64,000 nt of DNA, from NCBI GenBank assembly GCA_044866195.1, contig JBIOTT010000024.1, forward strand, positions 4,849-68,848. Reading direction: 5' to 3'. The notes beneath the pieces were generated by a model. That model was not told where the DNA came from. It worked only from the letters and a program-made list of their open reading frames with translations, and ran no database searches. Positions 47,977-59,481 of the stretch are shown piece by piece. Made by a program: the position numbers and the translations under genes. The DNA comes from Gemmatimonadales bacterium (GTDB lineage Bacteria > Gemmatimonadota > Gemmatimonadetes > Gemmatimonadales > GWC2-71-9). The first letter of the stretch is position 1. Each line of letters begins with the position of its first letter.

Positions 47977-49080
47977 TCACGATACCAGTCGTTGGCCGGT
48001 CTCGCCGTCGAACAGGTGGATGGCGGCGGGGGGGACCGTGAGCGCGATCTCGTCGCCCGCCTGAGGCACGGGCCCGGCGGCGACGCGCGCCGTCAGCTCG
48101 TGCTCGTCGCGGCTCGCATGAATCAGCACTTCGCCGCCTAGAAGCTCGACCAGATCCACCCGGCAAGCCACGGTCGACTCCGCCGAGCCTGGCTCACCCT
48201 CGCCCAGCCGAATCTCCTCCGGCCGCACCCCCAGCACGACTTTGGCGTTTGCACGGCCCGCCAACGGCGCCCCCAGCGGGAGGGTAAATGCCCCCCCAGC
48301 GGCCTGGAAGGCAGGGTTGGCGCCGTCGGTCAGCTCGCCCTGCAGCAGGTTCATGGCTGGGCTGCCGATGAAGCTCGCCACGAAGGTGTTGGCGGGCTTC
48401 TCGTAGAGCATGCGGGGGCTCGCGACCTGCTGGACCCGGCCGGCGTTGAGCACCACGATCCGCTCGCCCAGGGTCATGGCCTCGACCTGGTCGTGGGTCA
48501 CGTAGATCATCGTCGCCTTGAGCTCCCGATGGAGCCGCGCGATCTCGCGGCGCATCTGCACCCGCAGCTTGGCATCGAGATTGGAGAGCGGCTCGTCGAA
48601 CAGAAAAACCTGCGGGTGCCGCACCAGCGCTCGGCCCAGCGCGACTCGTTGCCGCTCGCCGCCCGAGAGCTGGCGGGGCTTGCGGTCGAGCAGGCGTTCG
48701 AGTCCGAGCAGTCCCGCGGCTTCCCGAACCCGGCGATCGATATCAGGGCGGGCCAGGCCCCGGAGCCGGAGCGCGAACGAGAGGTTTTCGTACACATTCA
48801 TGTGCGGATAGAGCGCGTAGTTCTGAAACACCATGGCAACGTCCCGCTCCTTGGGCGGGAAGTCAGTGACCACCTGGTCACCGATCTTGAGCTCCCCCGC
48901 AGAGGCCGACTCGAGGCCCGCGATCATCCGCAGCGTCGTGGTCTTGCCGCAGCCGGAAGGGCCGACCAGCACCACGAACTCGCCGTCGCGAATCGCGAGA
49001 TCGATCGGGTGCACGGCGACGTGCCTCCCGCTCCGGTCCTCATAGGTCTTGGCTATGCCTGCCAGCGTTACGCTTGCCAT
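47977..49080 (-). CDS. ABC transporter ATP-binding protein, MalK/UgpC (carbohydrate importer) type
   Basis: Walker A GPSGCGKTT, LSGGERQRVALGRAL, LFDEPLSNLD, and a C-terminal regulatory (TOBE-like) domain. Start ATG 49080. Confidence 0.9.
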   Translation of the reverse strand: MASVTLAGIAKTYEDRSGRHVAVHPIDLAIRDGEFVVLVGPSGCGKTTTLRMIAGLESASAGELKIGDQVVTDFPPKERDVAMVFQNYALYPHMNVYENLSFALRLRGLARPDIDRRVREAAGLLGLERLLDRKPRQLSGGERQRVALGRALVRHPQVFLFDEPLSNLDAKLRVQMRREIARLHRELKATMIYVTHDQVEAMTLGERIVVLNAGRVQQVASPRMLYEKPANTFVASFIGSPAMNLLQGELTDGANPAFQAAGGAFTLPLGAPLAGRANAKVVLGVRPEEIRLGEGEPGSAESTVACRVDLVELLGGEVLIHASRDEHELTARVAAGPVPQAGDEIALTVPPAAIHLFDGETGQRLVS

Positions 49081-49102
49081 GAGTGGGCGCTCGATGATAC
49101 GG

Positions 49103-57007: not shown

Positions 57008-57165
57008 TATGCAGGCATCGAAGAGGACCGGGGATCACCAATCGCACTGGGCACCAAGCCGAAATCTATGCGGGTGGCTGAGAAGTTGGGTTGCCGTTCC
57101 CAACGTCGGATTGCACCCGCCATTTCCGCTGACCTCCTGGTCGAACCCGACCCGACCGCGCCTCA

Positions 57166-59481
57166 ATGACGCGGGCTGGCGAATGCATCCGACTCTGGGC
57201 CGCGCTGCGAACCGCGCCCATGGCTGTGGTGACCCTCGCTGTCCTGGGCTGCCCCGGGCCTCTTCCGGGACCGAGCGGCCCCATCCAACCTGCCGGCCAA
57301 GCCGGCGCCTCCCCGATGGACCGATTCGTAGACTCTCTGCTGGCGCGGATGACCCTCGAGGAGAAGCTGGGCCAGCTGACTCAGTCGACCGGACCGGGCA
57401 GCAACACCGGCCCCGCCGCGCGGGCAGGTACCGACGCCGACATCCGGGCCGGCCGGGTCGGTTCCTTCCTCGGCGTTCGCGGTGCGGCGTACACCCGCGA
57501 GCTCCAGCAGATTGCGGTCGAGGAGAGCCGGCTCGGCATTCCGCTCCTCTTCGCCGACGACGTCATCCACGGTTACCGAACGATCTTCCCGGTGCCACTG
57601 GCCGAGGCATCCACGTGGGATCCGGCCGCGGTGGAGCGTTCGGCCCGGATCGCCGCAGTGGAGGCCACCGCCAACGGGGTCCATTGGACCTACGCGCCGA
57701 TGGTCGATATCGCACGCGACCCCCGCTGGGGTCGGGTGGTGGAAGGGACGGGGGAGGACCCCTACCTCTGCTCGGTCATGGCCGCAGCGCGGGTGCGTGG
57801 CTTCCAGAGCCCCGATCTCTCGTCCGACAGCACCCTCCTCGCTACCGCCAAGCATTTCGCGGCTTATGGCGCTGCTGAAGGCGGGCGCGATTACAACACG
57901 GCAGACCTCTCGGACCGGACTCTTCACGAGATCTACCTCCCACCCTTCAAGGCCGCCATCGACGCTGGCGCCCAATCGGTGATGGCGGCGTTCAACGAGA
58001 TCGCCGGCCTGCCGATGCACGCGAACCGGCCCTTGATTCGCGGCGTGCTCCGCGACGCCTGGGGTTTCGACGGAGTGGTGGTCAGCGACTACACCGGGAT
58101 CCTCGAGCTGATCCGCCACGGGATCGCCGCCGACAGCGCCGCGGCGGGCCGGCTGGCGCTCACCGCCGGGGTCGACGTCGACATGGTGAGCCGGATTTAT
58201 CTGAGCCAGCTCCCACACCTCGTGCATGGGGGAGCGGTGGCCGAGTCCCTGGTGAACCAGGCCGTGCGACGAATACTGCGGGCGAAGTATCGGCTCGGGC
58301 TCTTCACCGACCCGTACCGCTACAGCGATCCGGCACGGGAGCGGGCTCGCACGCTCACGTCGGAGCACCTGGCAGCGGCGCGCGAAATGGCCCGGAAATC
58401 CATCGTACTGCTCAAGAATTCGGGGCAGACGCTTCCGCTCTCGAAGGGTCTCGGTACCCTGGCGGTCATCGGCCCCCTGGCTGACGACGCGGCCTCCACG
58501 CTGGGCCCTTGGGCCGGGGCAGGGCGGCCCGAAGACGCCGTGACGGTGCTCGCTGGGATCCGGCGAGCCGTTCCCGCCGGAACCCGCGTGCTCTACGCCA
58601 CGGGCGCCGAGACGCGGGGTGAAGACACGACCGGCTTCGCGGAGGCCGTCCGGGTCGCGTGGCAGGCGGACGCAGTGGTTCTGGTGCTAGGGGAAGACCG
58701 GGACATGAGCGGGGAGGCCAACAATCGCACCTCGCTCGACCTCCCGGGTGTGCAGCAGCAGCTGGCCGAACGGGTGCAGGCGACCGGGAAGCCGGTGGTC
58801 GTGGTGCTGATGAACGGCCGCCCGCTGTCCACTCCGTGGCTCGATGCCCAGGTTCCGGCGATCATCGAGGCATGGTACCTGGGTGTGCAGACTGGCCCAG
58901 CGGTCGCCGACGTGCTGTTCGGCGACTACAACCCTGGCGGCAAGCTCCCGATAACCGTGCCGCGCAGCGTGGGCCAGGTCCCCATCTACTACAACCACAA
59001 GCCGACCGGGCGTCCGCCCGAGGAACGGGAGCGGTACAGCTCCAAGTACCTCGACGAGCCCTGGACCCCGCTCTACCCCTTCGGCTACGGTTTGAGCTAC
59101 ACGGCTTTCGCGTACGACAGCCTCCGCCTGAGCACCGCGCGGCTTCGTCGATCCGATTCGGTCGAGGTGAGCGTCAGGGTGACCAACACCGGCCGGCACG
59201 CGGGCGACGAGGTGGTCCAGCTCTATGTTCGCGATGAGGTCGCGAGCAGCACCCGGCCGGTGCTGGCGCTACGCCGGTTCGAGCGGATCACGCTGGCACC
59301 GGGAGAGGCACGCACGGTGGCGTTCACGCTGCGCGCCGACGACTTCGCGTTTCCCGGTCCCGATTTGGAGCCCCTTGTCGAGCCGGGCTTCTTCACCGTG
59401 GGCGTGGGGACCAGCTCGGCAGACCTGCAGCAAGCGCGTTTCGAGCTGGTGAGTGAGTTATCGCCCCGGGCCGCGCCGTGA
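57166..59481 (+). CDS. bglX: GH3 beta-glucosidase (BglX-like), secreted or lipoprotein
   Basis: MTLEEKLGQL, GIPLLFADDVIHG, DPRWGRVVEGTGEDP, GVVVSDY, and the C-terminal fibronectin-like domain pattern EVVQLYVRD. Confidence 0.9.
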   Translation: MTRAGECIRLWAALRTAPMAVVTLAVLGCPGPLPGPSGPIQPAGQAGASPMDRFVDSLLARMTLEEKLGQLTQSTGPGSNTGPAARAGTDADIRAGRVGSFLGVRGAAYTRELQQIAVEESRLGIPLLFADDVIHGYRTIFPVPLAEASTWDPAAVERSARIAAVEATANGVHWTYAPMVDIARDPRWGRVVEGTGEDPYLCSVMAAARVRGFQSPDLSSDSTLLATAKHFAAYGAAEGGRDYNTADLSDRTLHEIYLPPFKAAIDAGAQSVMAAFNEIAGLPMHANRPLIRGVLRDAWGFDGVVVSDYTGILELIRHGIAADSAAAGRLALTAGVDVDMVSRIYLSQLPHLVHGGAVAESLVNQAVRRILRAKYRLGLFTDPYRYSDPARERARTLTSEHLAAAREMARKSIVLLKNSGQTLPLSKGLGTLAVIGPLADDAASTLGPWAGAGRPEDAVTVLAGIRRAVPAGTRVLYATGAETRGEDTTGFAEAVRVAWQADAVVLVLGEDRDMSGEANNRTSLDLPGVQQQLAERVQATGKPVVVVLMNGRPLSTPWLDAQVPAIIEAWYLGVQTGPAVADVLFGDYNPGGKLPITVPRSVGQVPIYYNHKPTGRPPEERERYSSKYLDEPWTPLYPFGYGLSYTAFAYDSLRLSTARLRRSDSVEVSVRVTNTGRHAGDEVVQLYVRDEVASSTRPVLALRRFERITLAPGEARTVAFTLRADDFAFPGPDLEPLVEPGFFTVGVGTSSADLQQARFELVSELSPRAAP

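Follow-up and report, generated by a model that had tools for sequence, protein, structure and literature searches.

A probable beta-1,2-glucan locus in a Gemmatimonadales genome contains a naturally short cyclic glucan synthase and a coupled ABC exporter

The five genes described here lie in a 64,000-nucleotide stretch of a Gemmatimonadales genome (contig JBIOTT010000024.1; hereafter the window), in a region of ~69% G+C set between housekeeping blocks (Table 1). On the minus strand the order of transcription is a predicted GH144 endo-beta-1,2-glucanase, an ATP-binding cassette (ABC) exporter, a short cyclic glucan synthase (Cgs) of 1449 amino acids (aa) and a MalK-type ATPase, and a GH3 beta-glucosidase gene diverges from the GH144 gene. 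All five genes were found where a first-pass annotation of the window had placed them. We consider that the locus probably represents a complete beta-1,2-glucan system arranged around a synthase that is naturally short, although this reading is held with moderate confidence.

The fold of the synthase is settled by its sequence match to a solved structure. A phmmer search against PDB sequences aligned the synthase with residues 286-1528 of the 2818-aa A. tumefaciens Cgs (8rf0) at an E-value of 1e-218, and with the cyclisation domain of the T. italicus enzyme TiCGS (8wy1) at an E-value of 4e-101. A weaker N-terminal match pairs synthase residues 48-150 with A. tumefaciens residues 85-189, after which synthase residue 159 aligns with residue 286, and A. 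tumefaciens residues ~190-285 have no counterpart in the N-terminal domain of the synthase. Pfam detected only PF10091 (residues 1187-1392), no NCBIfam model matched the synthase, and the PADLOC models of anti-phage defence gave no match to the synthase and only generic ATPase matches to the exporter. The start codon is fixed by the ATGA overlap with the exporter gene and by relatives of 1449-1462 aa. Hydrophobic blocks were found at residues 278-338, 690-737, 761-780 and 812-841; in this coarse hydropathy scan the helices are not individually resolved, and the pattern is consistent with the topology of 6 transmembrane helices of A. tumefaciens Cgs (PMC10901819).

Alignment with the characterised enzymes revealed that (i) the GT84 DxD motif corresponds to D499/D501, and HRWVRGDWQ occupies residues 646-654 (R647-W648...D652-W-Q654); (ii) the predicted priming tyrosine is Y568 in GIDVY, which aligns with Y694 in GIDPY of A. 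tumefaciens Cgs; (iii) the cyclase acid/base E1190 corresponds to A. tumefaciens E1300 and TiCGS E1356, and the nucleophile E1276 to A. tumefaciens E1386 and TiCGS E1442; (iv) E1234 and H1369/H1370 correspond to TiCGS E1400 and H1536/H1537; and (v) S980 and D983 correspond to A. tumefaciens S1101 and D1104 (residue roles from PMC10901819 and PMC10834661). The GT84 and cyclase catalytic positions and the priming tyrosine are invariant in 70 sequences, 57 of short forms and 13 of long forms. An extra helical insertion between barrel helices sets GH189 apart from related glucanases (PMC12102758); between two aligned cyclase blocks lies a stretch of similar length that aligns poorly, 63 residues in the synthase facing 82 in 8wy1. 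The 8rf0 and 8wy1 alignments and the conserved residues thus confirm the first-pass assignment of a GT84 region joined to a Cgs cyclase domain, and the motifs quoted there (LDADT, RWVRGDWQ, AHRTSPTNIG, NWYDTRT, SWSGTMFEYLMP and MAHHQGM) are all present in the translation.

To our knowledge, all characterised Cgs members carry a C-terminal GH94 phosphorylase domain, which serves length control. The window synthase ends ~30 residues past the passage from cyclase to GH94 in A. tumefaciens Cgs (residue 1536), and Pfam found no GH94 domain in the protein. The GH94 tails of 13 long forms, 2 of which were checked by Pfam and contain GH94 (PF06165 and PF17167), were used as tblastn queries; they matched no frame of the 64-kb window and none of the surveyed short-form loci out to a distance of 10 kb. 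The absence of GH94 claimed at first pass is therefore upheld for both the protein and the window, and a check for a longer open reading frame (ORF) hidden by a frameshift found none, with no GH94 coding potential in any frame. A frameshifted extension would also have no room, because the MalK-type gene directly follows the synthase stop codon, with its start 22 nt downstream. Among the loci surveyed below (numbered with the prefix L), the sole tblastn matches of the GH94 tails came from 2 interrupted long forms. In L064 (L064:9518-17865) the GH94 part goes on in another frame, and in L079 (L079:9518-15991) the ORF stops ~700 aa into the tail; these interruptions, which probably stem from frameshifting or faulty assembly, illustrate what a true broken long form looks like.

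The short architecture recurs widely. In a collection of 5.8 billion proteins, the best 120 hits to the window synthase were all 1402-1625 aa long with PF10091 as their only domain, and their source names pointed to Gemmatimonadales, Terriglobia, Bryobacterales and relatives. An exhaustive HMMER search of 1.84 billion cluster representatives returned 4336 matches at E <= 1e-30, of which the 24 best were 899-1569 aa long, the long forms (2700-3000 aa) ranking only below them. A scan with one genome per species yielded 80 loci, which together with four loci fetched before made 84, and the ORF was measured at each. Two classes emerged: a short class of ~1380-1550 aa, 42-68% identical to the window synthase, and a long class of ~2715-2860 aa, 36-43% identical to it. 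A neighbour-joining tree of 70 sequences, built on the shared region (window synthase residues 160-1417), separated 13 long from 57 short forms by one split. Besides the C-terminal half, the only blocks specific to the long forms are two that follow window residue 152 and span 24 and 46 alignment columns; they correspond to residues ~190-285 in the N-terminal domain of A. tumefaciens Cgs; the short forms lack ~70-100 residues of this domain. On sequence grounds, the short synthases are a separate clade, mainly of Acidobacteriota and Gemmatimonadota, and Acidobacteriota hold both forms, the long in Pyrinomonadaceae and the short in Terriglobia. The word "truncated" used at first pass is accordingly misleading: the lengths of the best hits and the split of the tree identify the short form as the normal architecture of a large clade.

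Short-form loci were also seen in metagenome-assembled genomes (MAGs) labelled Acetobacteraceae (L032) and Solirubrobacteraceae (L053). Their proteins are 47-49% identical to the window synthase, like those of Acidobacteriota, and their placement could reflect mis-binning or horizontal transfer. Full-text literature searches turned up no account of a natural Cgs that lacks GH94; the architecture may already appear in the module listings of CAZy. According to the structural study of A. tumefaciens Cgs, known Cgs homologues conserve the active-site residue of the phosphorylase (PMC10901819), and a large sequence study refers to the proteins of CAZy family GT84 as "intact CGSs" (PMC12102758).

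The exporter is a half-transporter with a good Pfam match to ABC_tran (E 6e-32) and a weak one to ABC_membrane. A profile of its family could be aligned with MsbA over positions 159-596 and with the ABCB protein pgp-1 from position 66 onwards, and the membrane domain alone had no significant sequence match in the PDB. This profile alignment and a direct reading of the sequence bear out the coupling by ATGA to an MsbA-type exporter that was noted at first pass. Two details of that annotation required correction. The further-upstream start is replaced by the second candidate ATG, at 55299 (616 aa), because a 2-nt indel puts the earlier ATG, at 55350, out of frame in a 90%-identical relative, whose exporter gene is called at 616 aa. 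The NdvA label does not hold either: against the NdvA/ChvA models NF010178 and TIGR01192 the exporter scored 237 bits (cut-off 733) and 182 bits (cut-off 585), over its C-terminal half only, and orthology with NdvA/ChvA was therefore rejected.

Exporter and short synthase are constant companions. A homologue of the exporter (55-80% identity) lies directly upstream of the synthase in all 62 short-form loci with at least 2 kb of upstream sequence and in 0/13 long-form loci, and the same 4-nt overlap of the two genes was found in the Gemmatimonadota relatives L001, L002, L085 and L086. In Rhizobiales, chvA/ndvA adjoin chvB/ndvB, so that adjacency of an exporter is not in itself unique to the short forms. 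The conserved unit is exporter plus short synthase, and GH144 is a frequent third partner.

The N-terminus of the GH144 protein (...MLLTIACLQGCASF) contains a lipobox-like signal (LQGC), and no NCBIfam model matched the protein. Three glucanase-clan residues of XcSGL (XCC2207, PDB 8xul), E239/F286/Y367, correspond to E231/F277/Y358; the XcSGL crystal has Q at the first of these positions, which we take to be an inactivating mutation. Over 430 residues the protein is 58% identical to XcSGL, a characterised endoglucanase specific for beta-1,2-glucan (PMC12102758). GH144, GH3 and MalK-type genes were counted in the 51 short-form loci with at least 5 kb on each side. A GH144 gene occurred within ~3 kb of the synthase in 27 of these and in 0/13 long-form loci (Fisher p = 3e-4, count and test both taking loci as independent despite shared ancestry). 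It was found on either side of the short-form pair and on either strand relative to it, in several arrangements. The window GH144 is ~36-38% identical to the GH144 neighbours in Acidobacteriota, and the one examined (L025) has a signal of the twin-arginine translocation (Tat) type.

The GH3 protein has the N-terminal, C-terminal and Fn3-like Pfam domains and scored 820 bits against the BglX equivalog of NCBIfam (cut-off 666). Its closest structures include periplasmic beta-glucosidases (5xxl and 6r5i) and Lin1840, a GH3 enzyme that acts in beta-1,2-glucan metabolism as part of a Listeria catabolic cluster (PMC4757417). The GH3 clade includes enzymes that degrade beta-1,2-oligoglucans (PMC4757417), and the window enzyme may share this linkage specificity. 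A GH3 gene was present in 1/51 short-form loci; it adjoins a short synthase only in the window, L085 and L015, and was not seen in long-form loci. The MalK-type ATPase, which exceeded the cut-off of the NCBIfam UgpC subfamily (489 compared with 432 bits) and is probably co-transcribed with the synthase, occurred in 0/51 other short-form loci, was found in L085 only and was not seen in long-form loci. MalK/UgpC/MsiK-type ATPases usually have two permeases and a binding protein encoded alongside them; the window ORFs that were scanned include no gene for either kind of partner. The full five-gene order is present only in L085, the 90%-identical relative. GH3 and MalK are thus lineage-specific neighbours and not conserved parts of the system. 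Pfam matches, NCBIfam cut-offs and the similarity to XcSGL sustain the first-pass assignments of the three proteins, and of the functional unit proposed there the exporter and synthase, often with GH144, stand, while GH3 and MalK drop out.

In 17 Acidobacteriota loci, a gene of the GH39 family (Pfam PF01229) adjoins the pair of exporter and short synthase (L007, L010, L013, L017, L018, L024, L025, L029, L030, L034, L040, L044, L052, L054, L057, L059 and L082), often between the synthase and a convergent GH144 gene. E-values for PF01229 were ~1e-105 to 1e-112 in the four scanned (example L025:14347-15855), and the one examined for export, that of L025, has a signal peptide. We know of no link between GH39 and beta-1,2-glucan.

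The locus is bounded by alaS, recX and recA on one flank and by ftsK on the opposite flank. The apparent gap between the MalK-type gene and recA is filled by a UPF0102 (YraN-like) gene, in the same order as in L085. Rfam gave zero matches in the whole window, so that no known riboswitch lies upstream of the operon, and scans for promoters and terminators gave counts no higher than in shuffled sequence and were not used. The 229-nt spacer between the GH144 and exporter genes (55300-55528) is poorly conserved relative to the 90%-identical relative, except for the last ~60 nt before the exporter start, and contains no Rfam family and no convincing promoter or terminator. The remainder of the window, unrelated to the glucan locus, consists of housekeeping genes and a Wzx/Wzy-type exopolysaccharide cluster (9594-29813). 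This cluster encodes two GT4 glycosyltransferases, a MurJ/Wzx-like flippase, five methyltransferases (one TylF-like), a 997-aa Wza-like export protein with several SLBB domains, a Wzz/GNVR protein, an epimerase and a Bac_transf priming transferase. Beyond ftsK, the ORF at 61942-63072 (-) encodes a ComB-like 2-phosphosulpholactate phosphatase domain (residues 133-353), preceded by an unexplained ~130 aa at the N-terminus; its start codon is probably miscalled, because it overlaps the next ORF (biotin carboxylase, 62724-63995).

Table 1. Features of the glucan locus and its flanks in the window.
Feature	Position	Strand	Basis or remark
Short Cgs synthase, 1449 aa	49103..53452	-	phmmer against PDB 8rf0/8rf9 and 8wy1; no GH94 domain
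N-terminal cytoplasmic domain, synthase residues 1-277	52622..53452	-	Shorter than in long Cgs
First hydrophobic pair, residues 278-338	52439-52621	-	Kyte-Doolittle scan
GT84 glycosyltransferase region, residues ~339-689	51386..52438	-	Alignment to 8rf0
Second membrane region, residues ~690-841	50930..51385	-	Kyte-Doolittle scan, coarse estimate
Cyclase / beta-1,2-glucanotransferase domain, GH189 type, residues ~875-1417	49202..50830	-	Alignments to 8wy1 and 8rf0
ATGA overlap, exporter stop and synthase start sharing bases	53449..53452	-	Read directly from sequence
ABC exporter half-transporter, 616 aa, MsbA/ABCB-like	53449..55299	-	Membrane domain and nucleotide-binding domain
GH144 endo-beta-1,2-glucanase, predicted lipoprotein, 492 aa	55529..57007	-	PF10091, E 1e-81
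GH3 BglX-type beta-glucosidase, 771 aa	57166..59481	+	N-terminal signal or lipobox-like sequence
MalK/UgpC/MsiK-type importer ATPase, 367 aa	47977..49080	-	Pfam ABC_tran, OB_MalK, TOBE_2
UPF0102 (YraN-like) gene	47504-47902	-	Between MalK-type ATPase and recA
alaS	42683-45406		Housekeeping boundary, one flank
recX	45569-46342		Housekeeping boundary, one flank
recA	46183-47280		Housekeeping boundary, one flank
ftsK	59672-61945		Housekeeping boundary, opposite flank

We propose that the inner-membrane synthase would glucosylate its own Tyr568, that the GT84 domain would extend a beta-1,2 chain from UDP-glucose, and that the cyclase (nucleophile E1276, acid/base E1190) would release the chain as cyclic beta-1,2-glucan by intramolecular transglycosylation. 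Without GH94 there would be no phosphorolytic trimming, and ring size would be set by the cyclase and the geometry of the remaining domains; rings with a degree of polymerisation (DP) of at least 17 are expected, in a distribution probably broader or larger than the rhizobial one. The coupled MsbA/ABCB-type exporter would move the glucan to the periplasm, where, in the lineage of the window, the GH144 lipoprotein and the BglX-type GH3 enzyme may cut it to oligosaccharides and glucose, as size adjustment or turnover. Secreted GH144, and GH39 where present, may likewise trim or turn over exported glucan in other lineages. The MalK-type ATPase would be co-transcribed as a passenger and probably powers sugar importers whose genes lie elsewhere. 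The deletion in the N-terminal domain may have removed a surface no longer needed in the short forms, and the obligatory divergent exporter may be adapted to the product of the short synthase. A distinct mode of beta-1,2-glucan production or recycling had been suggested at first pass; a distinct system is a reasonable reading of these results, and recycling of the cell's own glucan is a step that we infer.

Work on engineered and isolated proteins supports the central step: the TiCGS cyclase domain on its own converts linear chains into rings of DP 17-26 (PMC10834661), and in E. coli a Brucella Cgs deprived of the phosphorylase domain continues to produce cyclic glucan, with a higher DP (PMC11071196). 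Several points weigh against the proposal. Those large rings are poorly exported by Cgt (PMC11071196), and A. tumefaciens Cgs1-1540 and Cgs1-1846, in which the C-terminal half is deleted, lose function (PMC10901819). On the basis of a cryo-EM model, the C-terminal half has been proposed to act as a scaffold and to measure and orient the chain (PMC10901819); given the A. tumefaciens truncation results, a cyclase without this half may behave differently. The function of the short form is predicted from sequence, and the exporter, which falls below the NdvA/ChvA cut-offs and has a membrane domain that resembles no solved exporter by sequence, owes its putative substrate to gene context. Roughly one short-form locus in two lacks a nearby GH144, Gemmatimonadota relatives with 68-70% identity hold exporter and synthase only, with no GH144, and the GH144 statistics count related loci separately. 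The combination of GH144 and GH3 also marks loci for feeding on beta-1,2-glucan of foreign origin. As for the engineered proteins, the natural short clade must have solved the problems seen in them, since its conservation with an exporter of its own implies a working solution.

The alternative that we rank highest is that GH144, GH3 and MalK form a foraging set for the beta-1,2-glucans of other organisms and merely adjoin the pair of synthase and exporter, with no functional tie to the cell's own glucan. The absence of GH3 from 50/51 and of MalK from 51/51 other short-form loci, the bare pair in the 68-70% identical relatives, the place of the GH3 enzyme Lin1840 in a known catabolic cluster of Listeria (PMC4757417) and the closer resemblance of the window GH144 to Xanthomonas XcSGL (58%) than to its Acidobacteriota neighbours (~36-38%) all fit this explanation. 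We nevertheless regard it as possible but rather unlikely: GH144 stands beside the synthase in 27/51 short but 0/13 long loci, in varied arrangements and far more often than chance would predict for genomes with a handful of GH144 genes each; the genes for GH144, exporter, synthase and MalK share one strand with short gaps; and no binding protein or permease for import of the product was found among the window ORFs scanned.

A somewhat less probable explanation is that most of the glucan released by the short synthase is linear or very large, in place of the classical rings of DP 17-25, and that periplasmic GH144 (and GH39 in Acidobacteriota) sets its size; length control would then have passed from phosphorolysis in the cytoplasm to hydrolysis in the periplasm, as in OpgH-OpgG/OpgD. 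The short forms lack the surface of GH94 and its Rossmann-like subdomain, which, according to the cryo-EM model, gauges the chain and positions it to be cyclised (PMC10901819); the association with GH144 is confined to short forms in this sample; a secreted GH39-family protein adjoins the pair in 17 Acidobacteriota loci; and the periplasmic beta-1,2-glucanases OpgG and OpgD are needed for, or adjust, synthesis of osmoregulated periplasmic glucan (OPG) (PMC10514313, PMC11842490). Set against these observations are the invariance of all cyclase catalytic residues, the unaided cyclisation by the isolated TiCGS domain (PMC10834661) and the lack of a nearby hydrolase in half of the short-form loci. 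A wider version, in which soil Acidobacteriota and Gemmatimonadota share a separate pathway with a minimal synthase, an exporter of a new subfamily, size set by periplasmic GH144/GH39 and a glucan of undescribed size or form, is offered as a tentative idea, of about the same standing as foraging.

Considerably less probable is a split system, in which a separate GH94 beta-1,2-oligoglucan phosphorylase encoded elsewhere in the genome would provide length control in trans. Stand-alone enzymes of this kind exist, for example Lin1839 (PMC3960220), and our view of the genome covers 64 kb; but GH94 was found neither in the window nor in the 10 kb around each short-form locus surveyed, and the N-terminal segment that is lost may be what touches the C-terminal half of long Cgs, which would speak against the docking of a separate partner. 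Finally, although L064 and L079 attest that broken long forms do occur in MAGs, the idea that the short gene is an artefact or pseudogene, derived from a normal 2800-aa Cgs by a break in the assembly, by frameshifting or by recent loss of sequence, is refuted by the size of the family, the distinct clade and the strictly conserved catalytic residues, together with the end of the ORF just past the cyclase domain, the MalK-type gene behind it, the lack of GH94 coding potential in any frame and the uniform lengths of the best 120 database hits.

The finding reaches past the window: as judged from the surveyed genomes, a module of exporter and short synthase, often with a predicted periplasmic beta-1,2-glucanase, is widespread. 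The role of the Cgs C-terminal half is seen differently through the inactive A. tumefaciens truncations and the Brucella truncations that make larger rings, and this natural, conserved and widespread clade, which lacks that half, has an N-terminal deletion and keeps its own exporter, makes the question testable in a ready experimental system. Cultured carriers of the short form include Terriglobus albidus DSM 26559 and Paludibaculum fermentans. In abundant soil phyla, beta-1,2-glucans may commonly be made as periplasmic or secreted products, and short synthases could serve as a source of cyclic glucans with large rings for use in inclusion complexes.

Compared with the classical Cgs of A. tumefaciens, the window synthase has a homologous N-terminal domain, membrane segments, GT84 domain and cyclase, with the same motifs, priming tyrosine and catalytic residues. 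The differences are that (i) the window synthase lacks the C-terminal half of ~1300 aa (the GH94 phosphorylase and a Rossmann-like subdomain); (ii) the short forms lack ~70-100 residues of the N-terminal domain; (iii) they form a separate clade; and (iv) they are accompanied by a different exporter family. TiCGS, whose cyclisation domain (8wy1) is the founding member of GH189, has equivalents of its nucleophile, acid/base, E1400 and histidine pair in the window synthase, in which, however, the cyclase domain is the C-terminus. TiCGS is presumably a long form, as its molecule name in the PDB, "Glycosyltransferase 36", is the old name for GH94. The engineered truncations, Brucella Cgstr and A. 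tumefaciens Cgs1-1540, have the same domain content as the natural short form. They differ from the conserved natural clade in that the A. tumefaciens truncations do not complement (PMC10901819) and the larger rings of Brucella Cgstr stay in the cell (PMC11071196).

The exporter resembles Cgt/NdvA/ChvA in its six-helix membrane domain, its nucleotide-binding domain and its expected job beside a glucan synthase, but it lies below the NCBIfam cut-offs and its membrane domain lacks a significant PDB sequence match. Compared with XcSGL, the window GH144 has no disordered C-terminal tail, appears to be a lipoprotein and is encoded beside a synthase; both proteins are secreted. In the OPG system of E. 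coli, a membrane beta-1,2-glucan synthase likewise works with periplasmic endo-beta-1,2-glucanases that shape or permit the glucan (PMC10514313, PMC11842490). The proteins are unrelated (GT2 OpgH and GH186 OpgG/OpgD), so that this likeness is one of analogy and not of homology, and whereas OpgH translocates its own product, the window locus has a separate ABC exporter.

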